Source: a virus
IMG/VR virus record: IMGVR_UViG_3300034152_001291
Location: 1 to 64,000 of that record
Length of the DNA stretch: 64,000 bases
Strand: one strand, 5' to 3'
Made by a program: the position numbers and the translations under genes. The notes under the pieces were generated by a model. It saw only the letters and a program-made list of their open reading frames with translations. It was not told the origin of the DNA and did no database searches. Each line of letters begins with the position of its first letter. The stretch's first letter is position 1. This document shows positions 1,227 to 31,628 of the stretch, piece by piece.

Positions 1227-1235
1227 TCTTATGAC
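1227..1235 (-). promoter_or_regulatory. GTCATAAGA motif copy 1 (putative phage promoter)
   Basis: Exact 9-mer, one of 7 same-strand copies. Confidence 0.65.
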
Positions 1236-1236
1236 T

Positions 1237-1263
1237 AAAAAGAGGCCCCTTTTAGGGGGCCTC
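1237..1263 (-). terminator. Rho-independent terminator
   Basis: GAGGCCCC/GGGGCCTC hairpin followed by a U-run on the minus strand. Confidence 0.7.
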
Positions 1264-1281
1264 GGGTGGAGCGCCGGAGAG

Positions 1282-1443
1282 CTACCGACGCTCGCGGAGA
1301 AGGGAAAACTCCTTGATCCAGATCCGGCGCCGCTCTCGCGCCAGTCCCGGGTCGAGACTCCGGAGTTGCTTCAGGCGGTCGGTGATCAGTTGACGGGGAC
1401 GTTCCTTCTGGCGGGGGTACTCCCTGCTGAGGTTCTTCGACAT
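1282..1443 (-). CDS. small basic hypothetical protein (MSKNLSRE...)
   Basis: In frame with track ORF 1282..1665; AAGGAGAAGGA RBS. Confidence 0.5.
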   Translation of the reverse strand: MSKNLSREYPRQKERPRQLITDRLKQLRSLDPGLARERRRIWIKEFSLLRERR

Positions 1444-1475
1444 TCCTTCTCCTTTCCTTTGTCTTCGGGCTTGGT

Positions 1476-1835
1476 TCAGAAGCCCGGGTCCAAGATGATG
1501 TACATGACCCTGGAGATGGGATGGTCCATCTGGTGATCGCGGACGGCATTGTTCGTCAGCCATTCCTGGGCCGCGCGTCTCCAGTCCTCCTCCCCGTCCA
1601 TGATCCTCCTCGGAATCCTCACACCTTTCGTCATCCAATGCTTGTCGGAAAAGATGAAGAGGCACGGGACTTCGACCGTGGGATTGAACTCGTCGGGGAG
1701 ATCGGATCTGTCCTCGGCCTTGATCTCATAGACGCCGTCCGGAAAAGGCGTGATCTCGATCCATCGCCCGGCCTTGATCATCTTGCCCGCCGCGTTCAGA
1801 GCGGCGACCTTCTTGACTTTCGCGGTGATGTACAC
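1476..1835 (-). CDS. hypothetical protein
   Basis: ORF track; GAGGAG RBS; fits gene tiling. Confidence 0.6.
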   Translation of the reverse strand: MYITAKVKKVAALNAAGKMIKAGRWIEITPFPDGVYEIKAEDRSDLPDEFNPTVEVPCLFIFSDKHWMTKGVRIPRRIMDGEEDWRRAAQEWLTNNAVRDHQMDHPISRVMYIILDPGF

Positions 1836-1862
1836 GGCTCGTCATCTCCTCGTAGCATGTCC

Positions 1863-2072
1863 TCATGAAGGGCCTCCCCTGAGCATCGTCAGGATCGGGT
1901 AGGCCAACTTCCCGCACCTGGGGCATTCGGCGGCAGGGACCGTGCATCCGGGCTCTACTCGCAAATCGAGGTGCTTGATCTTGTAGAAGGCGTTCGGATC
2001 GAATTCGAAGATGCGGCGGCAGCTGTCGCAGACGGCCACCTCGTCAATGTTGACCACGACGAGTCTTCCCAT
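1863..2072 (-). CDS. hypothetical zinc-ribbon protein
   Basis: CDSC...CPRC. Confidence 0.55.
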   Translation of the reverse strand: MGRLVVVNIDEVAVCDSCRRIFEFDPNAFYKIKHLDLRVEPGCTVPAAECPRCGKLAYPILTMLRGGPS

Positions 2073-2152
2073 CTTTCGATCCTGGATGCGGAATTGGAAT
2101 GATCTCTGGTCGAAGAGGATTTTCAGGGCCTCGTACAGCGCCCCAGAAGTTC

Positions 2153-2533
2153 TCAGTCTTCATCCGGGGGCTCCCCCATGGATTCGTAGAACTCTCTTTC
2201 CTCCCGGCTGTACAGGTGCTCGTCCTCCAGGTACATGCAGTGGGAGAGGATCAGGCGCCGGGCCACGAAATCGGCCGTGACCGTTCCGGGAGGATCGAAC
2301 TGCTTCGTCAGGTCTTCCAGGATCTTTTCGCAGTCGATCCTCTCACCCTCCTCGAAGGCGTCCCCCAGGAGATTTCGCAGGCGGGTCGTTTCCATGATCT
2401 CCCGCATCTCGTCGGCTCCCGTATCGAAGACGTGCGCCGCGCATTTCGGGCAGAGGTTTTGTTTCCGGCAGGCGATGAGGCCAACCCAGTCCCAGCCTCC
2501 GCAGTCGTCGCACCTTCTCTTCTCGATGCTCAT
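2153..2533 (-). CDS. hypothetical CxxC protein
   Basis: CDDC, CPKC; GGAGG RBS. Confidence 0.6.
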   Translation of the reverse strand: MSIEKRRCDDCGGWDWVGLIACRKQNLCPKCAAHVFDTGADEMREIMETTRLRNLLGDAFEEGERIDCEKILEDLTKQFDPPGTVTADFVARRLILSHCMYLEDEHLYSREEREFYESMGEPPDED

Positions 2534-2641
2534 CGTGATCCTCCACGGTCAGGCTTGCGAGTCCCTTATCCCTCGAGGTCTTCCAGGAGGGCCTCGGCCG
2601 CCTTCTGGGCTTCTTCTTTCGTCATCATGGAGTCTGTCCTT

Positions 2642-3184
2642 TCAAAACCAGGACGCGAAGGTGGGTTCGCGCCCCACGGCGACCGCGGCGATGACCAGGG
2701 CGAGCGCCTGCTTGTAGCTCGCCATGTACCCCGTGTGGTAGCGGCGGCTGGCGATCGTCTTCTTGATCTGCTTGGTGGGGTTGCGGTCGTGGCAGGTGTA
2801 GACGTACTCGCACCAGTCCTGCTCGCCTTTCAGGTGGTGGAGCAGCGTGTGGGCCGCGGCCGAGGGCGTGTAGTACCCCAGGGACTCGGCGATCATGTGA
2901 GCCACGAGCGCCGGCCAGCGGGCCATGACGTACTCGGGCGAGAAGGATTCGATCGAACGGCGCCGGTGCTCTTTGCAGGGGGACTTGAGGATCTCGTGGC
3001 AGTCGGAGTCATTGATGGAGAAGACGCGCCCGCAAGCGGGGCAGTGGAAGGCTCCGCTCGGCTTGGACTCCTCCCACACGTGAGCGTGCAGAATCTCGCG
3101 GCGTTTGGTTCTCAGGATCTCCAGGCTTTCCTCGCTGTCGAACTTGACCTTCGGAAAGCCGTCCGGAACGACTCCCTCTTCCAT
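2642..3184 (-). CDS. hypothetical protein (HMIAESLGYYTP motif)
   Basis: ORF track; start overlaps upstream stop. Confidence 0.65.
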   Translation of the reverse strand: MEEGVVPDGFPKVKFDSEESLEILRTKRREILHAHVWEESKPSGAFHCPACGRVFSINDSDCHEILKSPCKEHRRRSIESFSPEYVMARWPALVAHMIAESLGYYTPSAAAHTLLHHLKGEQDWCEYVYTCHDRNPTKQIKKTIASRRYHTGYMASYKQALALVIAAVAVGREPTFASWF

Positions 3185-3510
3185 CAGTCTTCTTCCTCCT
3201 CTTCTTCCTCCTCGTCCTTCTTGTCGGGATCATAGACCCAGACCCACGCCTGGACGTAGCACCCGTCCTCGCACATGACGAGGCGCGCGTTCTCGTCGAT
3301 CTCCACCTCGCCCTCCGAGTTGTGGATCTCGTCCGCGAGTTCCTGGTAGCGCTTCTTCTTTTCCGGGGGCATGTCGTTCTTTTCGAACACGGCGATGACG
3401 GTTCCGCAATCGCACGCGAGCTGAAGGCGCCCATCCTCGCCCTTGATCACCTTCACCTTGTGGCCGACGCCGTGGTGCTGGTAGAGTTGGTCGACTTGGT
3501 CTTCCTTCAT
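3184..3510 (-). CDS. hypothetical protein, paralog of 9263..9472
   Basis: EID...EDGCYVQAWVWV shared with 9263..9472; acidic tail. Confidence 0.65.
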   Translation of the reverse strand: MKEDQVDQLYQHHGVGHKVKVIKGEDGRLQLACDCGTVIAVFEKNDMPPEKKKRYQELADEIHNSEGEVEIDENARLVMCEDGCYVQAWVWVYDPDKKDEEEEEEEED

Positions 3511-4097
3511 GGTTTCTCTTCCTCCTCGATTTCGACGCCCACGAGGACTTGCTTCTCCACGAGAATCGTCTCGGTTACGACCCGGTGAGTCTTGGCGTAC
3601 TCGATGTAGGCCTTGATAGCCCGCTCGCAAGTGGCGTCGAAGTCCTTGACGAGGTCGTACCGCTCCCGGACGTCATCGAGGCCCCATCCGTCCCTGCGCG
3701 AGAACTTTTCCGCCCCGGTGAAGTCTTCGTCCATATCGGTGCCCTTTCCGGGCATGGAGTAGGGCTGGTCGTCTCTCACCCCTCCCTGGTAGAGGACGAG
3801 GTAGCCGCCGGAGCGTCCGTTCGACCCGATCTGCCACCTGTATCTGTGGCGGGCATCGAACTCGCGCAGGATTTTATGAGGAGCCTCGAAGGCTTCCTCG
3901 AGCTGTAGGCAGTCGTACATCCTGTCGATCAGGGCGGAGCGCTCGTCGGGGGAGAGGTCTTTGGGGATGAACTCGTACAGGTCGCAGATCTTGACCCTGA
4001 AGGCGTAGCTCTTGCTTTGGTTCCAGGAGTTGGCGGTCCAGTACCGGAAGTGGTTCGAAAGGTACTCCATCATCTCTCTGCGAGTCGTCCGCGCCAC
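3507..4097 (-). CDS. hypothetical protein, paralog of 9462..10301
   Basis: EYLSNHFRYWTANSWN, NGRSGGYLVLY; GTG start with AGGAGG RBS. Confidence 0.75.
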   Translation of the reverse strand: MARTTRREMMEYLSNHFRYWTANSWNQSKSYAFRVKICDLYEFIPKDLSPDERSALIDRMYDCLQLEEAFEAPHKILREFDARHRYRWQIGSNGRSGGYLVLYQGGVRDDQPYSMPGKGTDMDEDFTGAEKFSRRDGWGLDDVRERYDLVKDFDATCERAIKAYIEYAKTHRVVTETILVEKQVLVGVEIEEEEKP

Positions 4098-4119
4098 GGG
4101 AACCTCCTAAAAACGGGCC

Positions 4120-4159
4120 AAAAGAAAAGTGCAGGTCCGGCGGTAAAGGACCTGCACTT
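4120..4159 (-). terminator. Rho-independent terminator
   Basis: 12-bp stem AAGTGCAGGTCC/GGACCTGCACTT followed by a U-rich tract on the minus strand. Confidence 0.7.
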
Positions 4160-4160
4160 C

Positions 4161-4169
4161 TCTTATGAC
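4161..4169 (-). promoter_or_regulatory. GTCATAAGA motif copy 2
   Basis: Exact 9-mer upstream of 3507..4097. Confidence 0.65.
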
Positions 4170-4191
4170 AGAAATCGGCCCTCCTCTTGGG

Positions 4192-4380
4192 CTACACGCG
4201 CTCCAGGAGGTAGTGCTCGTTGCAGTCCTTGCACCAGCACTTGTCGGAGTCCTTCTCGGGGCTGGCCTCGAAGTCCAGCTCGTACTTGTCCTTGTCGTCG
4301 ATATCGTTGGCATCGACCCACACGGGGAAGCTGAGTTGGACGTTCGATCCCCCGCAGACGCTGCACACGTACTTCTTCAT
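4192..4380 (-). CDS. small zinc-ribbon protein
   Basis: CSVCGGSNV...WCKDC. Confidence 0.6.
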   Translation of the reverse strand: MKKYVCSVCGGSNVQLSFPVWVDANDIDDKDKYELDFEASPEKDSDKCWCKDCNEHYLLERV

Positions 4381-4622
4381 TTGAACGGCTCCTTCTGGAG
4401 GTCGACGTACCGGGCGCTTCCAGGTCCCGACGTATAGGTAACCTGCGCGGGTTCGACCATCTTGACCTCGCACTCGATGGTGTACTGGGACATGCAGCCA
4501 GGGCACTGGCGGAACTCAGGCTCTTTCTGCTTCTTCCGGTGGACGGCTTCCACGATCTCCCGGCCGCAGCACCAGCACGCGAACTTGAGGACGGGCGTTC
4601 TCGGGTTGTCAGCCTCGCTCAT
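4377..4622 (-). CDS. small zinc-ribbon protein
   Basis: CWCC...CPGC. Confidence 0.55.
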   Translation of the reverse strand: MSEADNPRTPVLKFACWCCGREIVEAVHRKKQKEPEFRQCPGCMSQYTIECEVKMVEPAQVTYTSGPGSARYVDLQKEPFK

Positions 4623-5129
4623 CTATTCCTCCTCTTCCGATCTCTCCGGAGGCCCGGGCACCTGCGTGGCCTTCTTCAGCTCGGGGCTGACCTCTTCATG
4701 GATCTTCACGTTCGCGCAGAACGCAGCGAGAATCTCCAGGTTCGGGAAGATGAGCTGGGCCTCGATTTCGTCCTTGAGGACGCCGAGCTTCAGGCCCTTC
4801 GTGGCGGCCTCGAGCAGCCGGATCCTCTCCACGACGTTGCTCTCGAGCCTCTTCCAGTCGGCCTTGGCCAGGTTGGACAGGCTGCGGTGCGCTCGCTTAT
4901 TCAGGTTCTTGGCCGCGTCGTCGAAGGCCTTCTTGACGTCCTCACCCGAGTAGACGCCTTCCGCCTTGGCGCAGCGCTTGCACCAGGTGAACTTCTCGTT
5001 CTGGACCATGACCTCGGTCGCTTCCTCCAAGGAAACGGTGTCGTGGCAGTTCTCGCAGAACGCCTGGTTGTCGCCGGCCTTTCGAGCTTTTCGGATCTCG
5101 TCTCCGTCCATCAGGATGGTCCAGTCCAC
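4623..5129 (-). CDS. hypothetical protein with CxxC pairs
   Basis: CENC, CKRC; GAGGAGG RBS. Confidence 0.6.
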   Translation of the reverse strand: MDWTILMDGDEIRKARKAGDNQAFCENCHDTVSLEEATEVMVQNEKFTWCKRCAKAEGVYSGEDVKKAFDDAAKNLNKRAHRSLSNLAKADWKRLESNVVERIRLLEAATKGLKLGVLKDEIEAQLIFPNLEILAAFCANVKIHEEVSPELKKATQVPGPPERSEEEE

Positions 5130-5425
5130 GATCCCTCCTCGAAGAAAAGAAGCTGCTTGAAGATGGCTTGTGGCGATACGACGTATAGCCGGTCACGACC
5201 CCAGACGGACCGAAGAGTCTCCTCGTCGTATCCGTTGAGCCAGTACTTGTTCCGCGGATTGCCGGGAGCGCAGCACGTGATGTGGATGTGAGGAGGAGAC
5301 GCCGGCGGCTCGGCCATGTTGATCGTGTCGAGATAGCTGGCCCACGTGCAGCCGCGCGTGATGCTCAGGATCTCGTAGGGTCCGGTGTTGTAGTTGGTCC
5401 TGACGTACATTCCTGGTCGGATCAT
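5111..5425 (-). CDS. hypothetical protein
   Basis: ORF track; tiled with neighbours. Confidence 0.55.
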   Translation of the reverse strand: MIRPGMYVRTNYNTGPYEILSITRGCTWASYLDTINMAEPPASPPHIHITCCAPGNPRNKYWLNGYDEETLRSVWGRDRLYVVSPQAIFKQLLFFEEGSWTGPS

Positions 5426-5895
5426 GACTCCTCCTTGTCGATTCCGAAGTAGTCCAGGACCTCGTCCTTGTCCATCACCTCCATACCAGCCTTCTCAGCG
5501 GCTTCGGTGATGACCTCCTCGGCTGTCTTGCCCTCGGGAACCTCGATGTTGATGATGGCGGGGTTCACGACGCCCTCGCCCTCGTGTCCGTAGCCCACGT
5601 TGTGGGCCAGCCTGAATTCCTCCCCCCGGGAGTGACACTGCACCACCATCTGTGTAGCGGCCCCGGCCATGAAGCCCGTGATGCCTCCGGCCTCGATGTC
5701 GTGGTCGGCCTTGCAGATCAGCCCGTGGGGCGTCTGTAGGTCCGGGTGGTAGCCGTGATGGAGCGGACCGGCGTGCTCCTCCATGTCCAGGAGCTCCATG
5801 ACCCGGCGTGCGATGTCCACACAGCACTTGCTGTACGGGTCCTCGCTGTTGACGCGCACGTACTCGTCCCACTTTTCTTGGTCTGTGATTGGCAT
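5422..5895 (-). CDS. hypothetical protein (GITGFMAG...HSRGEEFR)
   Basis: ORF track; AAGGAGG RBS. Confidence 0.7.
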   Translation of the reverse strand: MPITDQEKWDEYVRVNSEDPYSKCCVDIARRVMELLDMEEHAGPLHHGYHPDLQTPHGLICKADHDIEAGGITGFMAGAATQMVVQCHSRGEEFRLAHNVGYGHEGEGVVNPAIINIEVPEGKTAEEVITEAAEKAGMEVMDKDEVLDYFGIDKEES

Positions 5896-6089
5896 CAGTC
5901 CTCCTTGTCGTAGACGACGATGTCGCCCTCCTGGGCCTTGCCCTCACCCACGAAGCCGAAGCCCACCCAGTTCATTCTCTTGCCCAGAATGTTGAAGCGT
6001 CGCTGGCAGTTGTCGATGTCGTGGGTGATGCAGGCGTGTTTCAGGGCCTGGAATTCGATTCTGTCGATGTTCTCCCAGTCAACTGCCAT
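5895..6089 (-). CDS. hypothetical protein (MAVDWEN...)
   Basis: C-terminal part of track ORF 5895..6389; GGAGAGGAG RBS. Confidence 0.55.
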   Translation of the reverse strand: MAVDWENIDRIEFQALKHACITHDIDNCQRRFNILGKRMNWVGFGFVGEGKAQEGDIVVYDKED

Positions 6090-6546
6090 CGGCATTCTCC
6101 TCTCCGGGTACGAATCGGTGGGAGCAGTTCTCACACACGAAGTGGAACGCGTCGGTCTGCCGACAGCCGCCAGAGTTGCACTGCGGGCAGACGGCGGTGG
6201 GGCGCCTCGAGTCGGCGTGGAAGTACCCCTCCTCGCCAGGAGGTGGGCTGTTGTGCTCCTCTTCGCCGTAAAAGTGGCCCTGGTCGGCCGAGTTCCGGCT
6301 CGCCTTCTCGAACTTGGTGGGCTTGCCCGCCTTCTCCCAGCAGATCTTGTGGAAGACCTGGGGCTCGCCGGCGAGATGGATGTCGGCATCCGCGATGCGG
6401 CCGTAGCCGTCGTAGGCGCCCATCAGCATCTCGCCGTTGGGCTTGAGGGCCACCGCGTCGTGCATCCAGGCGTTCTTGTCCTGGATGTTGAAGTGGCAGA
6501 TCAGCGGGTGGCCGCAGTGGTCGCAGTCCCACGAAAACATACCCAT
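6079..6546 (-). CDS. hypothetical Cys/His-rich protein (MGMFSWDC...YDGYG)
   Basis: ORF track; directly downstream of motif copy 3. Confidence 0.7.
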   Translation of the reverse strand: MGMFSWDCDHCGHPLICHFNIQDKNAWMHDAVALKPNGEMLMGAYDGYGRIADADIHLAGEPQVFHKICWEKAGKPTKFEKASRNSADQGHFYGEEEHNSPPPGEEGYFHADSRRPTAVCPQCNSGGCRQTDAFHFVCENCSHRFVPGEENADGS

Positions 6547-6560
6547 AGTTCACACACCTT

Positions 6561-6569
6561 TCTTATGAC
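6561..6569 (-). promoter_or_regulatory. GTCATAAGA motif copy 3
   Basis: Exact 9-mer 14 nt upstream of ATG 6546. Confidence 0.65.
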
Positions 6570-7246
6570 TGATCGTCGTCGGTTTCTGCGTCGGCGAAGA
6601 GGGCCCACAGAGAGGAGATGGGGCCCGACTCCGCCTCCTTGAAGTGCGGGTAGACGTCCACGGAGACACCCTCGTCGGTTCGGACCACGTACACGCTCAG
6701 ATTTCCCACAGTGATCCAGCAGGAGTTGTGGTCTTCCTTGAGGATGTAGTCGGCTCCGTCGCCGGCAGCCAGGTCAAGGATGAGGGCGCCTTTCTCGGCC
6801 GCTTCCTCGTAGACCTCTCGCCGGCAGCGTTCGACCTCGGCTCTGTCGTGGTCGGAAAGCTCGTTGTCGGCTTCAGCGTTGCGGAGCACCCCGTCCTTGA
6901 TGTTCTGCCACGCCGTGCTGGCTCGGCCGAAGAGGGTCATGATCTTTTCGCGGGGGAGGTCCATGGACTCCTCGATGGCCTGCCACTCGGCCTCCTTGAG
7001 CAGTTGCGGGACGCCGACGGCCGCGAGCTCGTCGAGGAGCCTCGGAAACTGAACGGCGTCGAGATTCCATCTCGATGGGACCTCTTCAGGCGTGTTCAGA
7101 GACCTCCGGACGCCCATCTCTCGATCCCACTGGTCCTTCATCCAGACCGTTCCGCACTCTCCTCGACAGTGAACTTCGTCCTCCTCGAGGCCGACGGTTC
7201 CGCTCCCGCACACGGGGCACTCCACTTCGTCGAACTTATCGGTCAT
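6563..7246 (-). CDS. hypothetical protein
   Basis: ORF track; N-terminal zinc ribbon; GGAGG RBS. Confidence 0.7.
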   Translation of the reverse strand: MTDKFDEVECPVCGSGTVGLEEDEVHCRGECGTVWMKDQWDREMGVRRSLNTPEEVPSRWNLDAVQFPRLLDELAAVGVPQLLKEAEWQAIEESMDLPREKIMTLFGRASTAWQNIKDGVLRNAEADNELSDHDRAEVERCRREVYEEAAEKGALILDLAAGDGADYILKEDHNSCWITVGNLSVYVVRTDEGVSVDVYPHFKEAESGPISSLWALFADAETDDDQS

Positions 7247-7452
7247 AGAGACTCCCTCCAGTTGACGACGAGAAGTTTCTCGTCACCGCGGTTGTTGAAG
7301 TAGTCGAATCGCCTGAGATCGATCCCGAGTCGTCCGAGTTTTCGGACAAGCCCGATCTCCGTGGCCTGCGGCTGGACGAGACACTCCCCGCTCAGCCGAT
7401 GAGCGGAGTGCTCCCCGGGTCGATGGACGGTGTAAAATGCCGTCGCCGCCAT
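7243..7452 (-). CDS. hypothetical protein
   Basis: MAATAFY start with GGAGG RBS; tiled. Confidence 0.5.
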   Translation of the reverse strand: MAATAFYTVHRPGEHSAHRLSGECLVQPQATEIGLVRKLGRLGIDLRRFDYFNNRGDEKLLVVNWRESL

Positions 7453-7691
7453 CAGAACACCTCCATGATCGAGTCGGACGTGCCGAAGATGACGATCGTC
7501 CCACTCCCGCCGTCGTTGAAGGAGAAGCATTCCCTGAGCTCCTCCTCGTGCTCCTTGAACCAACCCCGATACTTGGGGGAGATGACGAGGCCGCTCAAGA
7601 TCGTGCCCCGCACGTCGCTGGCCGTCCTGATGGCCAGCAAGGTCCCGTCGGCTTGAAGGCCAACGGCTCGAATCTCATTCGGGTACAGCAC
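7452..7691 (-). CDS. hypothetical protein
   Basis: ORF track; GGAGGAGG RBS. Confidence 0.55.
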   Translation of the reverse strand: MLYPNEIRAVGLQADGTLLAIRTASDVRGTILSGLVISPKYRGWFKEHEEELRECFSFNDGGSGTIVIFGTSDSIMEVF

Positions 7692-7968
7692 CGTCCTCCT
7701 CCTTCGGGGTCATGTCCTTGAGCCACCGCTCGAGCTCGCTGATGTGCGAGAACTCGAAGAGAGGGCTCTCCTTGGAAAAGATGGCACGAAGGAGGCGCTC
7801 GTCCTTTCCAGCGCCCTCCTTGTGCTCGCTCCAGTCGGCATCCACCAAGCCGCTGCCGTCAGCGAAGATCTTCAGGTGGATTTGCTGGATCCTCATGTTG
7901 TCCTTCACGCCCTGCACCATCCGCTTCTCGAGGATGTCGAGGCGCGACAGAATCTCGTTGAAGTCCAT
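7675..7968 (-). CDS. hypothetical protein, paralog of 11577..11849
   Basis: EKRM.GV.DN..IQ...FADGSG...ADWS...ERLL.AIF...LERWL shared. Confidence 0.7.
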   Translation of the reverse strand: MDFNEILSRLDILEKRMVQGVKDNMRIQQIHLKIFADGSGLVDADWSEHKEGAGKDERLLRAIFSKESPLFEFSHISELERWLKDMTPKEEDGAVPE

Positions 7969-8858
7969 TACCCCTCCGTGTACTCATCGCCTTGTTTCCT
8001 GTCTGAGAACGGACAGGTGACGTCCACGCAGTGGCCGTCAGAGTTCAGAGAAGACCCACACCTCTCGCACTTGGGACCGATCACGCCGTCCCACCAGCCG
8101 AGGTTTTCGGCTGTGTTGAGAAGGCAGTCTGTGAGCCAGCCTGACATGTTGAACCGGCCCGAATTGACGCGAATGCTTTCGCGCAGATTGCCGTCTGCGT
8201 GCCGCTCCGATGCGGCCTTCCAGTCCGCGAGCATCTCGATGAGGTCGAGGAGGTTCATCGAGTGAATCCCGCTCTCGAAGTGCTCCGGATGGTGACGGTT
8301 GTGCGTGTAGTGGTGGTCAAGGGCCGGCTTCATGGCAGCGAGGAAGCCCTTGTACTCCTCGCTCCCGTAGGTCGAGTGCTTGAGCTTCGGAATGAACTCG
8401 TCGAAGATCGCCTTCTCGGGATCCTTGAGCTTGCTTGCGTCGTGCTCGCGGCCACGATCAACCAGCTCGGCAGCCACCGTCCCTACGAGCTGGAACACGC
8501 GCTTTCGGTGCTCCATCGTGTCTTGGGTCGAGTCGTAGGGTGCCTCGTCCTTCTCATCCCTCTTGGTCATGAGGGTGCGGATGAGTGCCACGAGGTCCTC
8601 TTCCCGGGTGTCTGGATCGAGGTAGGTCAGGATCTCCTTGTTGTTCATGCCGCTGGCGATGAGTTCGGCGATCCACTCGTCGAAGCCCATCGCACCCTGC
8701 TGGTCGTGTTCGGGGATCACGGCCACGCACTTGGCGTCTCCTGGCTCTCCGAAAGGACACGGCTCGCACTGGCTGGAGTCGTGGATGTTCCACGCCCCGC
8801 AATCACGGTTCGGGAATCTCTTGTTGCACTCCTCCGCCTTGTTGCATTTCACCTTCAT
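7968..8858 (-). CDS. DUF5662-like (HD-type) domain protein
   Basis: RGREHDASKL, HHYTHNRHHPEHF, MNLLDLIEMLADW. Confidence 0.75.
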   Translation of the reverse strand: MKVKCNKAEECNKRFPNRDCGAWNIHDSSQCEPCPFGEPGDAKCVAVIPEHDQQGAMGFDEWIAELIASGMNNKEILTYLDPDTREEDLVALIRTLMTKRDEKDEAPYDSTQDTMEHRKRVFQLVGTVAAELVDRGREHDASKLKDPEKAIFDEFIPKLKHSTYGSEEYKGFLAAMKPALDHHYTHNRHHPEHFESGIHSMNLLDLIEMLADWKAASERHADGNLRESIRVNSGRFNMSGWLTDCLLNTAENLGWWDGVIGPKCERCGSSLNSDGHCVDVTCPFSDRKQGDEYTEG

Positions 8859-9273
8859 CCGGCTTCTCCTCCGATTGGATCATGCCCGTCATCACCATCA
8901 CATCGTGCTCGATGAACATGAAGCGGTGTTTCAAGGCGAACTCCACGATCTTCTCGTCGTCGAATAGGCGACGGAACGCCTCCTCTTTGAGGACGGCCCA
9001 GCCGCCGCTCCTCCACGGGTTGGGCCTCTTCTCCTTTTCCCAGCCTGGTTTGGACTTGGCGGCGTCGATGCCGATCATGATGATGCCCTGCTTCATCCAG
9101 TCGGCGCACTTCTGGCATGGCTCCATGTCGATGACCTTGCCGTCGAGCGGGGCCAGGTCCTTAGTCGGCTGCATGCCTTTCTTGGTCTGGTAGTAGTTCT
9201 TGGCCAGGAGGATGCGGTCGCCCTCCAGGCAGTAAAAGCACTTGGTCAGCGCTACGTGTTGTCTATCTCCCAT
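8803..9273 (-). CDS. hypothetical protein
   Basis: CFYC, EPCQKC, NPWRSG. Confidence 0.65.
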   Translation of the reverse strand: MGDRQHVALTKCFYCLEGDRILLAKNYYQTKKGMQPTKDLAPLDGKVIDMEPCQKCADWMKQGIIMIGIDAAKSKPGWEKEKRPNPWRSGGWAVLKEEAFRRLFDDEKIVEFALKHRFMFIEHDVMVMTGMIQSEEKPDEGEMQQGGGVQQEIPEP

Positions 9274-9472
9274 CGCCCTGCTCTCCTCCTTCCGTGTCTT
9301 CCGATCTCAACGGCACCAGGACCCACGCCTTCACCCAAACACCGTCTTCGCCGACGGAGTACTCGGTGGGGTCGTCGATCTCGAGCATGTCGTCGCTCTT
9401 GTGCGCGTACATCTTCCGCGCTTGCTCGAGGTAGTACCTCTTCTGTTCGTCGGTGAGTTCGTCACTCGCCAT
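9263..9472 (-). CDS. hypothetical protein, paralog of 3184..3510
   Basis: EIDD...EDGVWVKAWVLV. Confidence 0.65.
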   Translation of the reverse strand: MASDELTDEQKRYYLEQARKMYAHKSDDMLEIDDPTEYSVGEDGVWVKAWVLVPLRSEDTEGGEQGDGR

Positions 9473-10301
9473 CCTCTTCTCCTTTCGGCACGGCCACCTG
9501 GACGGTCTTCGGCACCATGATCTGCTTCTCTACCACCTTGTGGTTCTTCACGAAGTCGATGAAGGCCTTGACCACTCTCTCCACGGTCTTGTCGAAATCC
9601 CAGACCACGTTCACGCGCCACCTCAGCGAGTCGATGTCCCAGGACTCGAAGTCCTCCCCGTCGTCGTCCACGCCCTTGTAGGGGTACGTGAAGGTCTGCA
9701 TGTGGGTCTTCGTGAAGTCGTGGAGGGTTCCTTCGGCGTTGCAGCGACCGCATTTGTTGGAGCCCACCTTGCCGTTCTTCTCCACGTCCTTCTTGGCGCG
9801 CCTCACGATCTCCACCACCCGCTCGACGGAGAGACCGAGCTTCACGATCTCGGACTGTGTTGGATAGATGTCTGGGACCCAGTGGTCCTTATCGAGAACG
9901 TAGACGTAGCACGCCCACTCTGCGTCGGTCAGGTCCTCCGGTTTGGCCGGCACGTTCCTGCGGTAGTTGAGTTGACCGCAGTTGTGGCAGTAGCGCTTGT
10001 ACCCGGACGGCTTCATGCCGCCCGTGTACAGCACGAGGTAGCCGCTGGATCGCCCGTTGCTGAAGATCTGCCATTCGTACTTGTGACGCTCCTCGAACTG
10101 CCGAATGATGTCCTTGCCCTCCCTGAAGGCCTCTTCGGTCTGAAGGAAGTCGTAGCCGTCGAGGTCGTCGGACATGATCCGGTGGAGTTTTACGTTGGCG
10201 GCGTAGCTCGTGGACCGATTCCACGAGTTGCCAGTGTAGTAGCGAAAGTGGTTTTCCAGGTACTCAACCATCGCCTTCTTGGTTCTCGGCTTCCTGGCCA
10301 T
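9462..10301 (-). CDS. hypothetical protein, paralog of 3507..4097, with Cys-rich insertion
   Basis: EYLENHFRYYTGNSWN, NGRSSGYLVLY, YCHNCGQLNY; GGAGG RBS. Confidence 0.75.
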   Translation of the reverse strand: MARKPRTKKAMVEYLENHFRYYTGNSWNRSTSYAANVKLHRIMSDDLDGYDFLQTEEAFREGKDIIRQFEERHKYEWQIFSNGRSSGYLVLYTGGMKPSGYKRYCHNCGQLNYRRNVPAKPEDLTDAEWACYVYVLDKDHWVPDIYPTQSEIVKLGLSVERVVEIVRRAKKDVEKNGKVGSNKCGRCNAEGTLHDFTKTHMQTFTYPYKGVDDDGEDFESWDIDSLRWRVNVVWDFDKTVERVVKAFIDFVKNHKVVEKQIMVPKTVQVAVPKGEEDGE

Positions 10302-10462
10302 CACGTCCTCCGATTCGGGCAGCCGTGCTCGTGGCACGCCACGCCATTGATCACGATGGCTTCGCACTGGCTGCACCGCACAACCCACATGCCTTCCGAC
10401 CGGTCGTACTCGGACAGGTCGAATCCGCGGTCTCGCAAGTCTTGCGTCTTGCTCTTGGCCAT
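10301..10462 (-). CDS. small Cys-rich protein
   Basis: RCSQCEAIVINGVACHEHGCPN; AAGGAGG RBS. Confidence 0.65.
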   Translation of the reverse strand: MAKSKTQDLRDRGFDLSEYDRSEGMWVVRCSQCEAIVINGVACHEHGCPNRRT

Positions 10463-10941: not shown

Positions 10942-10957
10942 GCGGAAACCTCCTGGA

Positions 10958-12493: not shown

Positions 12494-12520
12494 TCCTTTT
12501 CATCTGGTTGCTCGTGCGAC

Positions 12521-13060: not shown

Positions 13061-13064
13061 GACG

Positions 13065-13262: not shown

Positions 13263-13272
13263 CAGGCTCCTT

Positions 13273-19910: not shown

Positions 19911-19960
19911 ACCGGAGGGAAGGGTTTTGGACCGTTCCTCGCCGACCTAAAATAAGAAAA

Positions 19961-19996: not shown

Positions 19997-20023
19997 TTTC
20001 AGACCCTTTTCGAGGAAAGAGAT

Positions 20024-21495: not shown

Positions 21496-21523
21496 TTGGC
21501 TTCCCCGAAAAGGTCCGTATACT
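21496..21523 (+). promoter_or_regulatory. sigma70-like promoter TTGGCT-N16-TATACT
   Basis: Upstream of 21564. Confidence 0.55.
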
Positions 21524-24296: not shown

Positions 24297-24746
24297 ATGA
24301 AGCGGACAGTACCGAGAACGGGCACAGCAGGCCCTGAGGGGCCCAGAAAGCGGTTCGACGAGGCTTTCGTTCGGGAGCTCGCCAAGATCGGCGCAGGCGT
24401 GCACTGGAGCCCTCTATCGAAGGCCCAGAAGGCCTCGACGGTTAGAGCCGGGTTCAAGCCTGTTCCCAGGCGCACCGAGTCCGGTGTCCCTTTCATGAGC
24501 TCCAAGCCGGTCCATAGCGTCCCCTCCGAGGCTCAGGTCCAGCGGACGGCCCAGAAGATGAAACGCTTGCCCCAGATAGGCCCCAACCCTCTCCTCTCCA
24601 AGACGGGTGCCGAGAACAGGCGGGCGGGGATGTCCCGGGAGGAGATCGAGAAGGCCAGGAAGAGGGCCAAGTATGCCTCCATCGCCAAACGACGGAAGCT
24701 CCAGGAAATGCTCGGTCGCTTGGACCGGACCTCCGGGTCCAAATAG
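24297..24746 (+). CDS. basic putative virion protein with AFVRELAKIG motif
   Basis: ORF track; shared leader. Confidence 0.65.
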   Translation: MKRTVPRTGTAGPEGPRKRFDEAFVRELAKIGAGVHWSPLSKAQKASTVRAGFKPVPRRTESGVPFMSSKPVHSVPSEAQVQRTAQKMKRLPQIGPNPLLSKTGAENRRAGMSREEIEKARKRAKYASIAKRRKLQEMLGRLDRTSGSK

Positions 24747-26482: not shown

Positions 26483-29400
26483 ATGGGTTTCACTCCCAAC
26501 ATCAATCTCGAGACGCCGGCGAACGGCGACTACCTGGACACCTGGGATTCGCCGGTCAATCTCAACTGGGACAAGATCGACGCCTTGTTCGACGCCACCC
26601 GGTCGGACATGGGAGGCTCGGGGCACGTTCACGACGGGACCGCCGGGCAGGGCCCCCAGGTGGACCACGACGAGCTCCTGAACGCCGGCACGGTCAGCCA
26701 CGCCGATCTCGACTCCGAGATCACCCAGGTCCGCGTGACGAGCAACGACGGGACCGTGGACTACATCGGGACGAAGTTGCAGGCCGGCTCGGGGATAACC
26801 CTGACCGAACTCAACGACGGAGGGGACGAAAAGCTCGAGATCGCTTCGACCGGAGGGGCTCCGACGCTCGGGGACGTGAACGATCCGACAGGGCAGTACG
26901 GGTGGCGGACCATGCCCTCGAGCTCAGCGCCGGTCATCTACACCGACAACTTCAACTATCCCGCGAGCAAGACTCTTTCCGACTGCGACTACGCCACGGA
27001 CTCCTTTACGCCCACGGGGGCGCCGTTCGATTTCTACGCCACGGGGAGGTCGATGCGGGTCGACGTGGATCCCCAGCTCCTCGGGTCGGATCTCTACGGG
27101 CAGTACGCGGCTACCGTCGCCTGCCATATCCCGCACGGGCGCGCCCAACGATGCACGCTCTCCATCACGGACGCGGACTTCGAGGATCTCGAGGTCGGGG
27201 ACTCGTTCAACTTCGTCCTCGCGGTCCACTCGACGCATCAGCTCGGGCCCGCCCTTCCCAACCGGTACGGAGTCTTCCTCGAGATTCACCTGGTCCGAGT
27301 CGCGTCGAGCACCTCCGCCGACTTTCAGGTCACGCACCGCATCATCGTGGTCCCCGACGACACGACCCAGGTTCAGATCTTCGAGTGCCACAACCACACG
27401 AGTGGGGACGACATCAAGGGATGCTGGGAGATCAGCCTGGATGCCTGGGGGCACGTCTACCACTACTGGCGCCGGCGTCTGGTCTACAGCAGCCAGACCT
27501 CCCCGCCGAACACGCCGGGCCCGGTCTACTCCTACTTCGGGAATCTCTCGGCCTCGCTGCTGGCGATCTCGGACCCCAAATACGGCGCCATCGGATTCGG
27601 CAGCCAGTACGCTGTCTCGCCGCACGCGAAGTTCTTCATCGAGGCCTCCTGGCTCTCGATCGCGGCCGAGGGGGACATTTACGACGAGGTTCCGGGGTCC
27701 TGCCCGGGCTCGCTTCCTCCGATCGGGATTCCGACCGAGGTCGACATCCCGCTCGTTTTCTACACGGTTCCTCCAGGGGGTCACAATCCTCCCGGCAATC
27801 CGGGCGCCCAGTGCTGCCCGCCCCCGAACGCGGTCGACATCGGGGACGTCCTGGCCACGGATTCATTCGGAAACCCCACGGTGTGGGTCACGGGGTGCAA
27901 CGAACTCATTTCCGAGGAGGTTCCGGAGGGGAAGATCGACGGCTACACCACGAACATCTCGGCTCCCTGGTGCTTCCCCTGCGGCGCGCCCTCGGGGACG
28001 CCGACCTTCTACGACGTCCCGGACGACTGGCCCCAGGAGGGAACCGAGGGCGCCATCATCGTCCACGGCATCGAGCCGCTCCCTCCCTACATCGACGTGA
28101 TTCCGGACACCCCGGGATTCACGGTCGTGGATGCGGTGCCGCTCAACCTCAACGAGTTCCTTCTGAAGTACCAGATCGCCGACGGGTACGCAGGGACGAC
28201 GGTCGGCATCGACATCAACAACCCCTACACCGGGTCGACGCTCCTGACCGTTCCGTCCTTCGTCGAGATCGACGATGCGCCTCCGGTGATCGACACGATC
28301 AACTGGGTGGATCAATGGACGAAGAATCTGACGGTGGCGACGGCCGGCTATCCCTTCGACGTCACCATCAATGGGTCGGGTTTCGATCTGGGCTCGATTG
28401 TCAGTTCCCCCACGGCGGGCGTCACGGTCCTCTCCTACCTCTACGTGAGCCCCTCCCAGATGGTCGCGGAGATCGAGCTGGACTTCCTCACCACGCGGGG
28501 GCAGCTGATCACGATCGAGGTGTCGGACGGGGCAGCGACAGGATCGAAAGAGGTCCTCTCGAACTACCCCATCCCGATCGGGGCGTGGCTCGATATCTCG
28601 GCGACCACCCCGGGGATCGGAAGAACGGGAACGATCTACGGGAACCTCTTCCCGAGCAACGTCGAGGTGACGGCCGTGAACCCCGCGCTCGTCGCCAATC
28701 TCGTCCCGATCTGGGTCGACGAGAACACGGTCAACTTCACCATGGATATCATCGGCTTCGCGGGACAGGTGATCGAGTTCGAGGTGAAGGACCCCGACGG
28801 GGGAGGGACGATCACGATGCCCGTCTGCGAGATCGACGACGCCGCGCCTCCGAGTGTCTCGTCGGCCTCCACGATCCCCGTCAGCGTCTACGAGGCGGCG
28901 CGCGATAAGATCTATGAGGTGACGGCTTTCGGCTCCGGCTTCGGGCCGGCGTCCTACATCTTCATCAACAGCATCCCCGTGGGTCCGCTCTACGGAACCG
29001 AGGGGGACATCCACACCACGGTCCGGGCCCCGACGAGCGTGAAGGGAGAGTTCTGGGTGCCCTGCAGCACCGTCACGGGAGTGGACGTCAGCGTGTTCAA
29101 GCCGGGGGTCGGCTCCGACGCCCTTCCCGCGGCCTTCAACACCCTGGCCGTGCCCGCGACATCCATTACCGCCGGAACGGCGGTCTGGTCGGGCGGACTC
29201 CGTCCCGGCGCCTCGGGGACCGTCACGTTCCCCTTCACCGGGGGTCTCATCCATCTCACGGACATCCAGAGCGTGGTCGGCAGCGACCTCTCGATCGATC
29301 TCGGAACGAGGATCCAGAACCCGGCATCCCTGGACTACGACTACCAGGTGGCGGCCGGCGCCGTTCCCGCGACGACGGTCTCGGTCTTCTTCGCCAACGG

Positions 29401-30625
29401 GGCCTGCGACACCTCTCCCTCCCAGTACGACGTGGAGATCGACTATGACAACCCGGTCATCACTTCCGTGGACCTCGAGCTCTACGAGGACATGACGGGC
29501 GTGACCGGGAAGATCTACGGGTCGGGGTTCTACGACACTCCTCCCGGGACACTCGTCGTGGCCGGAACGGGAAACATCACGGTCGTCTCGAGCAACGTGA
29601 TCAGCGATACCGAGATCGAAGTGACCGTGGATAACGGGTCGCCGGGGGCGGCGGGCTTCTTCGTGACGAACTCGAACGGAGACACGTCCCCCACGTACGC
29701 CCTGACGATCCTCGCCGAGGAGGCGCCCGTCATCTACCACGCGGAACTGGTTCCTTCGGTCACGGGGACCTTCTCGACCCTCTACGTCTACGGAAGAAAC
29801 CTCTACCCGCCCGGAGCGGCTTACGTATTCACGGGATTCAGTTTGACGGCTACTAACAAGACCCTTCCGACCTATCTGGAATTCGAGGGCACCATCACGG
29901 CCGCAGCGGGCAACGACGTATTTCTCGACATCACCTCGACCTCTCACAGCTACCTCAACCTCTACCTCGACACGGCCACGGCTTCGCCCGGCGGGGACGT
30001 CCTCGTCCACGACATCGGGAACCCGAATCCCGTGGAAAACCAGACGAGCGTGCTCGTCACCATCAGCGGGGAGAATCTCGACCAGGTGGCAACGGTGGAG
30101 GCCGAGCCGTTCGACGCGGCCCGGCAGGCCCTGCGGTACGTTCCCGCGGGCGTCGTCGTCCCCGTCTCCGTCTCGATCGCGGAGATTCGCCCGGACAATC
30201 TCGTTCTCAGCGTCGATCTCGAAAAGGGCCTGACGCCCAACGACTACAACTTCCTCCTCTACGACGGGGGGATGTCCCTCTTGACGATCGCCCCGCAGGC
30301 GATCCACGTGGAGCCGTCCCTCAACGCCCCCGTGATCAGCGACCCCGTACGACTTCTTCTCGACGCGGCGATTCCCTCGGGAACCGGCCTGTCGTGGATG
30401 GTGGTCTTTGAGGTCTCCGGACCCACGCCGTGGATGTTCGGGGACCAGATCGTGGGCTACGGATTCACGGTGGACAGCTCGTCCTTCAATCCCTCGACCA
30501 ACGAGTGGACCGTGGAGGGCACGAACGGAGCGCCGGCCTCGGACTGGCAGCTCACGATCGAGCGTCCCGCGATCTCCGGAGTCGAGGAAGGCAACTACAG
30601 GATCCCCGGAGGAGTCGTCACCTAA
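26483..30625 (+). CDS. large tail fibre/surface protein with repeated Ig-like (IPT/TIG-like) domains
   Basis: Fibre-type N-terminus TPNINLETP...W...N.NWDKID; repeated P.I...(I/V).G.(G/N)(F/L) units. Confidence 0.75.
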   Translation: MGFTPNINLETPANGDYLDTWDSPVNLNWDKIDALFDATRSDMGGSGHVHDGTAGQGPQVDHDELLNAGTVSHADLDSEITQVRVTSNDGTVDYIGTKLQAGSGITLTELNDGGDEKLEIASTGGAPTLGDVNDPTGQYGWRTMPSSSAPVIYTDNFNYPASKTLSDCDYATDSFTPTGAPFDFYATGRSMRVDVDPQLLGSDLYGQYAATVACHIPHGRAQRCTLSITDADFEDLEVGDSFNFVLAVHSTHQLGPALPNRYGVFLEIHLVRVASSTSADFQVTHRIIVVPDDTTQVQIFECHNHTSGDDIKGCWEISLDAWGHVYHYWRRRLVYSSQTSPPNTPGPVYSYFGNLSASLLAISDPKYGAIGFGSQYAVSPHAKFFIEASWLSIAAEGDIYDEVPGSCPGSLPPIGIPTEVDIPLVFYTVPPGGHNPPGNPGAQCCPPPNAVDIGDVLATDSFGNPTVWVTGCNELISEEVPEGKIDGYTTNISAPWCFPCGAPSGTPTFYDVPDDWPQEGTEGAIIVHGIEPLPPYIDVIPDTPGFTVVDAVPLNLNEFLLKYQIADGYAGTTVGIDINNPYTGSTLLTVPSFVEIDDAPPVIDTINWVDQWTKNLTVATAGYPFDVTINGSGFDLGSIVSSPTAGVTVLSYLYVSPSQMVAEIELDFLTTRGQLITIEVSDGAATGSKEVLSNYPIPIGAWLDISATTPGIGRTGTIYGNLFPSNVEVTAVNPALVANLVPIWVDENTVNFTMDIIGFAGQVIEFEVKDPDGGGTITMPVCEIDDAAPPSVSSASTIPVSVYEAARDKIYEVTAFGSGFGPASYIFINSIPVGPLYGTEGDIHTTVRAPTSVKGEFWVPCSTVTGVDVSVFKPGVGSDALPAAFNTLAVPATSITAGTAVWSGGLRPGASGTVTFPFTGGLIHLTDIQSVVGSDLSIDLGTRIQNPASLDYDYQVAAGAVPATTVSVFFANGACDTSPSQYDVEIDYDNPVITSVDLELYEDMTGVTGKIYGSGFYDTPPGTLVVAGTGNITVVSSNVISDTEIEVTVDNGSPGAAGFFVTNSNGDTSPTYALTILAEEAPVIYHAELVPSVTGTFSTLYVYGRNLYPPGAAYVFTGFSLTATNKTLPTYLEFEGTITAAAGNDVFLDITSTSHSYLNLYLDTATASPGGDVLVHDIGNPNPVENQTSVLVTISGENLDQVATVEAEPFDAARQALRYVPAGVVVPVSVSIAEIRPDNLVLSVDLEKGLTPNDYNFLLYDGGMSLLTIAPQAIHVEPSLNAPVISDPVRLLLDAAIPSGTGLSWMVVFEVSGPTPWMFGDQIVGYGFTVDSSSFNPSTNEWTVEGTNGAPASDWQLTIERPAISGVEEGNYRIPGGVVT

Positions 30626-30688: not shown

Positions 30689-30691
30689 CAT

Positions 30692-30723
30692 AAAAAAAAA
30701 CCGGGCAGCGCCGACTGCCCGGT
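30692..30723 (-). terminator. Rho-independent terminator (convergent)
   Basis: CCGGGCAG/CTGCCCGG stem preceded by A9 on the plus strand. Confidence 0.8.
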
Positions 30724-30757
30724 ATTCCCGCCACGCCGGGGCGGGTTTGGAGAGGGA

Positions 30758-31243
30758 TCAGCTCTTCTCCTTCTCCTCCTCGAAGACGACCTCCTCGGCG
30801 TCCTCGTCCTCGTCGCCGTCGTCGTTGATGGTGACGAGGATTCTCAGGTCCTTCTCCTTGAAGAAGTCCTCGAAGGACCTCTTCGAGGACCGGTAGAGGA
30901 AGCCCTCCATCCCCTCCCAGGCGTCCAGGACCTCCAACATCTCTGCCGGGGTCATTTCGACGCCGATCTCCTTGAGCAAGGCCAGCCACATCTGAGCCTG
31001 CTGGCTTTTGCTTCTTGCTGCGGAGAGGATGGCGCCCTGGATGTAGGAGACGATCTCGTTCTGGTATCGCCTCTTGATGTCCAGGGCCTTGAGGATCTTC
31101 TCGATCCTGGAGTTGAACCGCCGGACCGGTTCCGACGGTTTCGGGACCTCCAACGAGGGGATCCCGGCTGCGGCGAGGAGGCTCAGTCCCCGCTGCAACC
31201 CCTGGAGGTGGAACCTCCAGTACATCTTGTTCTTCTTCTCCAT
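30758..31243 (-). CDS. hypothetical helical protein with acidic tail
   Basis: AAAGGAG RBS before MEKKNK; downstream of motif copy 6. Confidence 0.7.
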   Translation of the reverse strand: MEKKNKMYWRFHLQGLQRGLSLLAAAGIPSLEVPKPSEPVRRFNSRIEKILKALDIKRRYQNEIVSYIQGAILSAARSKSQQAQMWLALLKEIGVEMTPAEMLEVLDAWEGMEGFLYRSSKRSFEDFFKEKDLRILVTINDDGDEDEDAEEVVFEEEKEKS

Positions 31244-31276
31244 TGGGTCTCCTTTCAAAGAGCTGTCTCTCATCTT

Positions 31277-31285
31277 TCTTATGAC
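31277..31285 (-). promoter_or_regulatory. GTCATAAGA motif copy 6
   Basis: Exact 9-mer. Confidence 0.7.
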
Positions 31286-31295
31286 GCAGAGATCT

Positions 31296-31325
31296 AAAAA
31301 ATTGGGACCCACGAAGGGTCCCAAT
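31296..31325 (-). terminator. Rho-independent terminator
   Basis: ATTGGGACCC/GGGTCCCAAT 10-bp stem with adjacent A-run. Confidence 0.7.
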
Positions 31326-31433
31326 CGAAAGGAGGCCCAGGAGGCTCGCCTCCAAGGCAGTCCCGGGAAGCATCCCGGGTTGGCCGTGGAGTGGCCTACT
31401 CCACGGCGTCCGACCTATCGGACGATCCTCATG

Positions 31434-31535
31434 CTACTTCTTTCGAAGCATCTTCCGGAGCTTCCTGCCCAGGCGTCGCCCGAGAAAGAAAGAGTCCTGG
31501 AAGAGCATGAGGAAGCTGTGGTAATTCTTACGCAC
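31434..31535 (-). CDS. 33-aa basic peptide MRKNYHSFLMLFQDSFFLGRRLGRKLRKMLRKK
   Basis: AAAGGAGG RBS 5 nt before GTG; lies between motif copy 7 and a terminator; below the ORF-track cutoff. Confidence 0.5.
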   Translation of the reverse strand: MRKNYHSFLMLFQDSFFLGRRLGRKLRKMLRKK

Positions 31536-31560
31536 AGCTGCCTCCTTTCTGCCACGGTTC

Positions 31561-31588
31561 TTGATCGCCTCCATGAAGTGTTTACACT
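31561..31588 (+). promoter_or_regulatory. sigma70-like promoter TTGATC-N16-TACACT
   Basis: Upstream of 31651. Confidence 0.55.
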
Positions 31589-31619
31589 ACAGGAGAGCGA
31601 AAAGGCTCCGTGGCATTGT

Positions 31620-31628
31620 TCTTATGAC
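31620..31628 (-). promoter_or_regulatory. GTCATAAGA motif copy 7
   Basis: Exact 9-mer. Confidence 0.6.

Follow-up and report, generated by a model that had tools for sequence, protein, structure and literature searches.

A strand-specific, putative sigma-type promoter class in a phage contig that encodes a single-chain RNA polymerase and two sigma70-family factors

The IMG/VR virus record IMGVR_UViG_3300034152_001291 is a linear contig of 124,703 bp with 61% G+C, about 63% complete by CheckV, and its positions 1-64,000 (the window, 64,000 nucleotides) carry a repeated 9-mer, TCTTATGAC, ahead of leftward genes. Seven plus-strand copies at 1227, 4161, 6561, 18601, 19902, 31277 and 31620 had been listed in a first-pass annotation made from the letters of the window, and all seven were recovered, with no copy of the complement on the plus strand of the window. 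Over the whole contig the count rose to nine, the further copies lying at 110857 and 123465, all in one orientation and none in the other. Gene boundaries were taken from gene calls made in this analysis, which leave 8,583 of the 124,703 bp (6.9%) intergenic. Eight of the nine copies were fully intergenic, the sole overlap being that of copy 6561 with the last 7 nt of its upstream gene, and each of the nine stood upstream of a minus-strand gene, in agreement with the proposed placement at gene boundaries. Copies 19902, 31620, 110857 and 123465 were each located where a leftward block begins, in an intergenic region between divergent genes. The purine-rich sequence described earlier was likewise present after each copy (rARrTG). 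When words were ranked by intergenic enrichment, which replaced a maximal-order Markov k-mer statistic because sub-words carry the signal, TCTTATGAC was the top 9-mer of the contig. One-mismatch variants at 41278, 43205, 55429, 77883 and 115057 were rejected as chance occurrences, as they lay inside genes and lacked the flanks described below. Among 100 dinucleotide shuffles of the window, the 9-mer occurred 0.12 times on average and at most twice, and no shuffle reached seven copies. A chance or functionless repeat, for which only the short word length can be cited, is practically negligible as an explanation, since strand, position and flanks also depart from randomness and relatives have kept the word.

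The contig is organised by strand, with the non-structural genes on the minus strand and the virion genes on the plus strand, which accounts for the occurrence of the motif on one strand only (nine minus, none plus). The plus-strand blocks hold homologues of portal, RNA polymerase (RNAP) and capsid proteins. The portal protein homologue is encoded at 34087-35937 on the plus strand (27% identity over 529 amino acids (aa) to the portal gp204 region of Salmonella phage Arash), which places the RNAP gene in a virion-gene module on the strand that lacks the motif. This RNAP (42787-50247, plus strand, identified with Pfam) is a single-chain beta-beta' enzyme of 2486 aa with an intein and a LAGLIDADG insert, matching Rpb2_6 (3e-52), Rpb1_5, Rpb1_2, Rpb2_3, LAGLIDADG_3 and Intein_splicing. 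The enzyme is a member of a large family of fused RNAPs of about 2000 aa known from metagenomes, in which at least 383 proteins matched at E<=1e-10.

Alignment of the nine sites in the sense orientation, in which the 9-mer reads GTCATAAGA, revealed conserved positions on both sides. The first-pass annotation had stated that there is no consistent -35 box, but a conserved A-tract was found upstream, with A at -18 from the G of the 9-mer in all nine sites; each of the three positions after this invariant A was A in seven of nine sites, and C-C usually stood ahead. A T was located 3 nt ahead of the GTCATAAGA G in eight of nine sites. On the 3' side, four mostly purine bases were followed by T (8/9) and G (9/9), so that a T-G dinucleotide lies 5-6 nt downstream, and all nine sites read GTCATAAG. 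The nine sites are one discrete class: on a 43-nt weight matrix they scored 35-50 bits, while the next best position in the contig scored 12.6 and the best among 20 shuffles 16.2.

With CATAAG taken as the -10 hexamer, the sense-strand layout would comprise CCAAAA at about -34 to -29 (the A-tract at -32 to -29), a spacer with a T-rich end, G(-14)-T-CATAAG(-12 to -7)-A, a stretch of four bases that are mainly purines, and T(-1)G(+1). The G of GTC at -14 would then hold the extended -10 position, and the invariant downstream G would be the predicted start, at a distance of 7 nt from the hexamer and with T at -1. The leaders that would run from this start to the earliest plausible initiation codon are 9-85 nt long. 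The end of CCAAAA was separated from CATAAG by 16 bp, which is the second-box spacing of a sigma70-family promoter, although the box is not TTGACA. A was present at -11 in all nine sites, and position -7 was G instead of T in all nine, a departure from the sigma70-family -10 element, in which T at -7 is near-universal. From this arrangement, GTCATAAGA probably forms the -10-like core of a sigma-type promoter with two parts.

The copies within the window, all on the minus strand, differed in their immediate surroundings. Copy 1 (1221-1255; A-tract 1250-1253, 9-mer 1227-1235, predicted +1 at 1221 with C-G rather than T-G) stood ahead of a 46-aa open reading frame (1211-1071) and the gene at 768-1043, directly after an intrinsic-terminator-like hairpin (1242-1263, minus strand) whose T-tail runs into the 9-mer; this putative terminator marks a boundary between transcription units. 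Copy 2 (4155-4189; AAGA in the A-tract region 4184-4187, 9-mer 4161-4169, predicted +1 G at 4155) stood ahead of the gene at 3507-4097. Copy 3 (6555-6589; 9-mer 6561-6569, predicted +1 G at 6555) overlapped the stop of the gene at 6563-7246 and preceded the gene at 6079-6546 with a leader of only 9 nt. Copy 4 (18595-18629; A-tract 18624-18627, 9-mer 18601-18609, predicted +1 G at 18595) was ahead of the gene at 18314-18514, and copy 5 (19896-19930), in the divergent region 19844-20023, headed a leftward block of small genes of about 20 kb (1-19843). Copy 6 (31271-31305) followed a second intrinsic-terminator-like hairpin immediately upstream (31300-31326, minus strand) and preceded the gene at 30758-31243, and copy 7 (31614-31648) was located in the divergent region 31575-31650, ahead of a small gene (31434-31574). 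At three of the nine sites (4161, 18601 and 110857) a strong hairpin began exactly at the predicted +1 G (z -2.7 to -3.3). The one downstream of copy 2 (within 4120-4155, core 4131-4155, minus strand) has a stem of 8 bp (10 bp over the longer span) followed by a U-run (z -2.70; 0/200 shuffles folded as well), and the one downstream of copy 4 (18560-18595, minus strand) has a 10-bp outer stem (z -2.88; 3/200 shuffles). The hairpin at 4131-4155 may stabilise the 5' end of the transcript or act as a leader terminator/attenuator, or else it may be the terminator of the upstream unit, placed downstream of the start of the next promoter.

The same placement could be read in another way, namely as the binding site of a phage regulator or as an RNA-level processing or translation signal at gene junctions. 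The location at gene boundaries, the purine-rich, Shine-Dalgarno-like sequence that follows and the overlap of copy 6561 with a stop codon are compatible with such a role. However, the motif is not a palindrome and always points in the same direction as the gene downstream; its asymmetry, together with the fixed distance to T-G, makes the regulator site offered in the first-pass annotation unlikely. A fixed distance to an upstream A-tract would be needless in RNA, and the four copies between divergent genes would not be expected on any transcript from upstream. A translation signal is disfavoured by the spread of the distances between motif and start codon, 14 to 90 nt. A non-promoter role is thus improbable.

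Conservation was examined in uncultured relatives. No close relative was found in the phage collection by megablast, by tblastn or by a locus search with the RNAP in viral contigs. Homologues of the 1380-aa protein encoded at 26483-30625 led to two metagenome loci, L010 and L011, which were read over 24 kb and 17 kb, respectively; alignment of this protein to IMG/VR returned only loci at 28% identity, and those records were without the 9-mer. In L010, where the 1380-aa protein has a 50% identical homologue, the exact 9-mer was present in five copies, each on the strand complementary to that gene, one copy being inside a 1375-aa gene and without flanks. L011 (44% identity to the 1380-aa protein) contained it once. 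The A at the -35-like position was kept in four of the five L010 copies and in the single L011 copy. Several sites were orthologous by position: contig 31277 corresponds to L010 18758; contig 31620 to L010 19456 and L011 8992, next to the homologue of 31651-32235; contig 110857 to 81585 in the IMG/VR record G003 and 175249 in the genome G001; and contig 123465 to G003 94689. The proteins flanking these sites were only 30-51% identical. In a three-way alignment of one divergent region, conservation in the leftward half was largely limited to the blocks CA-AAA, T-TGTCATAAG and A-TG.

The whole of IMG/VR was scanned with the pattern AAAA-N11-T-NN-GTCATAAGA-N4-TG, which has 16 specified bases and is matched by three of the nine contig sites. 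As a result, 38 stretches in 37 contigs were retrieved, and 36 records could be searched whole. The core GTCATAA was strongly biased to one strand in the genomes compared (forward/reverse, with the reversed word as control in brackets): G000 1/10 (4/0), G006 23/3 (1/2), G011 9/2 (2/2), G020 0/9 (2/3), G022 11/2 (4/2) and G001 6/0 (3/5). For the exact 9-mer, the corresponding counts were 8/0 in G011, which also contained GTCAYRAGA variants with the same flanks, 0/4 in G003, 4/0 in G006 and 0/3 in G004; the G001 version of the motif was GTCATAAGT. In G006, 20 of 26 GTCATAA copies were intergenic, a same-strand gene lay downstream of all 20, and T or G occupied -7. The flanking columns also held in 47 intergenic GTCATAA sites pooled from five phage genomes, with A at the four A-tract positions in 36, 35, 39 and 32 of 47, the upstream T in 33, the downstream T in 37 and the G in 34. 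The AT-rich records G008 and G026, with three to four strand-pure copies and no RNAP, were set aside as chance, their sites not being at gene starts and the local G+C being 27-37%. At 151-158 kb of G006, dense short units were observed, each consisting of a GC-rich hairpin followed by cTAAAAA-N14-ttag-GTCATAATA, an arrangement near one end of the genome that resembles an array of strong-promoter cassettes.

Judged by these comparisons, the putative promoter signal is real and functionally constrained, kept under strong selection. The first-pass annotation had read the motif as the promoter of the phage-encoded fused RNAP. Position, orientation, the three-part architecture, the orthologous sites and the co-occurrence with the fused RNAP family strongly support the promoter half of that proposal, and the link to the RNAP is one of co-occurrence only. 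This co-occurrence, which had been suggested as a check, was borne out in the IMG/VR scan: nine of the 36 searchable records encoded the same fused RNAP family at 35-66% identity (G003, G004, G006, G010, G011, G020, G021, G022 and G030, that of G006 being 35% identical).

Two sigma70-family genes are present in the contig, both outside the window. The first, at contig 76024-76875 on the minus strand, encodes an RpoD/RpoS-like sigma with regions 2, 3 and 4; its homologues were restricted to G003, G011 and G001, apart from a weak match at Arash gp196, and none was found in the motif-bearing genomes G006 (89% complete) and G030 (100% complete). The second, at contig 121121-121819 on the plus strand, encodes a group-3-like sigma that matches the SigB/F/G and FliA/WhiG families best. 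A profile of 30 of its homologues matched SigF best, and residues 4-221 aligned to RpoS. Its AlphaFold model has a full-length fold (predicted local distance difference test score, pLDDT, 82.5), and Foldseek matched it to sigmaS, sigmaA, sigmaB and sigma28 in initiation complexes. A Pfam scan of its C-terminal 83 aa gave no region-4 match, although the profile and fold searches aligned full-length sigmas. Orthologues were identified in G003 (64%), G001 (41%), G006, G022 and G030 (24-29%), Arash (gp10, 27%; E 2.9e-16 for the gp10 region) and Vibrio phage D69. Since orthologues of the 121121-121819 product occur in motif-bearing genomes and the RpoD-like sigma is missing from G006 and G030, the former is the better candidate and most likely the reader, if a phage sigma reads the motif.

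The lineage was found to reach cultured phages. The RNAP is 29-30% identical to the enzymes of Vibrio phages D69, D148 and D181 and of Arash (OQ632216.1), and the homologues of portal, RNAP, capsid and tail-region genes are collinear with the Arash virion module. The exact 9-mer was not enriched in Arash or D69, and a variant of it heads the minus-strand non-structural genes of each. In Arash this variant is GGTATAAGT, and a blind intergenic k-mer search returned TGGTATAAGTAA as the top word. TATAAGT occurs 21 times in Arash, 21 of 21 on the minus strand, with the upstream G-G present in 19 and 17 of the 21 copies and, at a spacing like that of the contig, the downstream G in 13, T in 15 and purine in 20 of 21, giving the consensus tGG-TATAAG-TAAAG-T-R. 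The copies are located in gaps of 20-40 bp between the minus-strand genes gp49c-gp132c and also ahead of minus-strand islands inside the virion module. In D69, the variant GTTATAAGA was found nine times on the minus strand and once on the plus strand; GNYATAAG counts were 19/51, versus 27/24 for the control, and the flanks followed ttct-GTTATAAG-A...T-G with a Shine-Dalgarno sequence after T-G. A core of G-N-Y-ATAAG followed by T-purine at 5-6 nt is therefore common to the contig sites, Arash and D69, with the bases before ATAAG being GTC in the contig and GGT and GTT in Arash and D69, respectively. Arash and D69 resemble the contig in having a bacterial-type RNAP, a gp10-type sigma and the same promoter class on the non-structural strand. 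Arash differs in lacking a clear A-tract and in encoding beta and beta' as separate genes (gp206 and gp216), in contrast to the one intein-containing chain of the contig. Mass spectrometry placed beta gp206, beta' gp216 and sigma gp10 among the Arash virion proteins, according to the available part of that paper, in which the word 'promoter' is absent (PMC10585845).

The motif shares several features with sigma70-family group-3 promoters such as those of SigF/SigG and sigma28/FliA, namely boxes about 16-17 bp apart, an extended -10 G, an A at position -11, initiation roughly 7 nt past the hexamer (predicted in the contig) and a cognate sigma that matches SigB/F/G and FliA/WhiG. It is unlike sigma70-family promoters in having G or T rather than T alone at -7 and an A-tract in place of TTGACA or a known group-3 box, and in its presumed core enzyme, a phage single-chain beta-beta'. 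The consensus of sigma28/FliA is TAAA, about 15 nt and then GCCGATAA. Recognition by the host core with a host alternative sigma of the sigma28 type would fit the A-rich -35 region and the long -10 ending in ATAA, which recall this consensus with a similar spacing; however, GTC rather than GCCG precedes ATAA in the contig, and the GTC, GGT and GTT versions before ATAAG all differ from the sigma28 -10 element. Against host-only machinery in general, the co-occurrence with the RNAP in an unbiased scan (9/36 records) is far above any plausible background, and a sigma70 consensus scan called no site in window 1-20000, where 2.7 were expected, with no motif site passing. A reader drawn entirely from the host, such as the host core with a sigma28-like factor, is accordingly highly improbable.

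Similarity to other phage transcription systems was partial. As is proposed for the contig, phiKZ and AR9 use phage-specific promoters for phage RNAPs related to cellular enzymes, and they carry an early enzyme in the virion. Their RNAPs are split into four to five polypeptides without a sigma homologue, as described in the accessible parts of two reviews (PMC7824862, PMC13282480), unlike the one-chain enzyme and two true sigma70-family factors of the contig, which therefore does not belong to the phiKZ/AR9 type. According to the same parts of these reviews, the known phage multisubunit RNAPs work without sigma, and sigma-bearing large phages lack an RNAP and use the host core (PMC7824862, PMC13282480). 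Thermus phage P23-45 resembles the contig, as interpreted here, in its conserved motif upstream of early genes and its virion RNAP, but its RNAPs gp96 and gp64 are minimal two-barrel enzymes, so far as the available text of the source goes (PMC10770324), unlike the full Rpb2/Rpb1 set of the contig. No sequence match of the contig to Thermus phages was found, and a P23-45-like phage was excluded by the full domain set and by the lack of megablast or tblastn matches to phage records. A paper on RNAP-encoding Caudovirales contains neither 'sigma' nor 'promoter' in the part of its text that was available (PMC7481178). Searches of full-text literature, with supplementary files outside their scope, for the 9-mer and for a virion RNAP with sigma and early promoters returned no description of this promoter class, which is undescribed in print as far as the literature could be searched.

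Taken together, the sequence comparisons make it likely that the promoter is read by a holoenzyme of phage sigma and phage single-chain RNAP and drives the non-structural genes. In such a mechanism, the motif would stand at the start of the non-structural transcription units, whose genes all lie on the minus strand; sigma region 2/3 would read G-T-CATAAG, and region 4 or DNA shape would read the A-tract. The core enzyme would be the phage's own RNAP, and the sigma would most likely be the 121121-121819 product. By analogy with Arash, RNAP and sigma may be packaged and enter with the DNA, in which case the motif sites would be the first promoters used. The early regulon proposed in the first-pass annotation is plausible on this analogy, given that non-structural genes follow the sites and that Arash virions contain the homologous sigma and RNAP.

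Several observations weigh against recognition by the phage holoenzyme. The G at -7 implies either that the sigma pocket has been re-specified or that the proposed register is off. The records G040, G038 and G039, which are 22-40% complete, encode the RNAP without enrichment of the core. Among the 120 family matches listed, the catalytic loop reads NMDFNGD in the present record only (46873-46893), the others comprising 53 with NADFDGD, 35 with NMDFDGD, 2 with NADFNGD and 29 without a pattern match; the enzyme of the present record may thus be impaired, or the loop may reflect an assembly error. No orthologue of the 121121-121819 sigma was found in the motif-bearing G011 (68% complete). The terminator-like hairpin and U-run right after +1 at 4161 should abort transcripts. 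Finally, host RNAP with a phage sigma would give the same sequence picture.

This last possibility, that the host core and a phage sigma read the motif while the phage RNAP serves other promoters or none, would be a case of sigma appropriation, of which T4 gp55 and SPO1 gp28/gp34 are examples. Both sequence and fold mark the 121121-121819 product as an ordinary sigma70-family protein with three domains, which could in principle bind a bacterial core, as the own sigmas of RNAP-less large phages do with the host core (PMC7824862, PMC13282480, available parts). On the other hand, the RNAP family was present in every near-complete sigma-family genome examined (G001, G006, G030, Arash and D69), and among contigs longer than 100 kb the sizes 103,756 and 135,982 were common to those with sigma homologues and those with RNAP homologues. 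RNAP and sigma occur together in the Arash virion (PMC10585845, available part), and the motif core is kept across 47-61% G+C and down to 35% RNAP identity, a range in which the hosts probably differ. Recognition by the host core with a phage sigma is on these grounds unlikely. A more elaborate form of the phage-holoenzyme reading is put forward tentatively, with somewhat more doubt than confidence: the motif may be the early promoter of a virion-carried, all-phage holoenzyme made of a single-chain core without alpha or omega and a group-3-like sigma that accepts G(-7), infection would start independently of host RNAP, the triad would be kept across a mostly uncultured lineage reaching Salmonella and Vibrio phages, and the RpoD-like sigma would switch the core to TATACT promoters of virion genes.

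The TATACT element named here was observed 37-41 nt upstream of the plus-strand genes at 21564, 110953 and 113816 (at 21518-21523, contig 110906 and contig 113773). The copy opposite the 110857 promoter is conserved in G003, and the sigma70 scan called TTGGCT-16-TATACT at 21496-21523. A sigma70 consensus scan gave no enrichment of the TATACT-type class. Tentatively, TATACT may represent a second promoter class for virion genes, perhaps used via the RpoD-like sigma. A separate inverted-repeat hairpin, TTGGACCnG-(4-5 nt)-CnGGGTCCAA, was present in nine copies on both strands, some inside genes and some at gene ends; those in the window are located at about 1446-1493, 15633-15680 and 24695-24742 on the plus strand and at 32245 and 52992 on the minus strand, with four more beyond the window. 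This repeat may act as a terminator that lacks a T-run or as a binding site for a protein dimer, or it may be a mini mobile element.

Among the products of the leftward block, a GroES/Cpn10 homologue (222-560, minus strand, Pfam 9e-24) and an RNase T/DnaQ-like exonuclease (17532-18161, minus strand, Pfam RNase_T 5e-25) were recognised. Pfam gave no match for the other eight of ten motif-proximal proteins tested, and PHROGs gave none for ten proteins. The intergenic region upstream of the exonuclease gene (18162-18313) contains, at 18215-18260 on the minus strand, 12 consecutive A and a (GA)n tract. At the contig end (124640-124703), a GGAGAA hexamer repeat lies inside an open frame, where the record is cut.

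A lineage with a bacterial-type core, true sigmas and a private, deeply conserved promoter would represent a third phage strategy. If the proposal is true, these phages would possess a portable minimal bacterial transcription system, consisting of core and sigma without alpha or omega, and they would provide a natural case of a sigma that apparently accepts G at -7. The promoter sequence could be used to annotate the transcription units of such phages in metagenomes and would offer a defined template for reconstituting the enzyme. The cultured phages Arash and D69, whose promoters are not described in the literature searched, are open to direct experiment.

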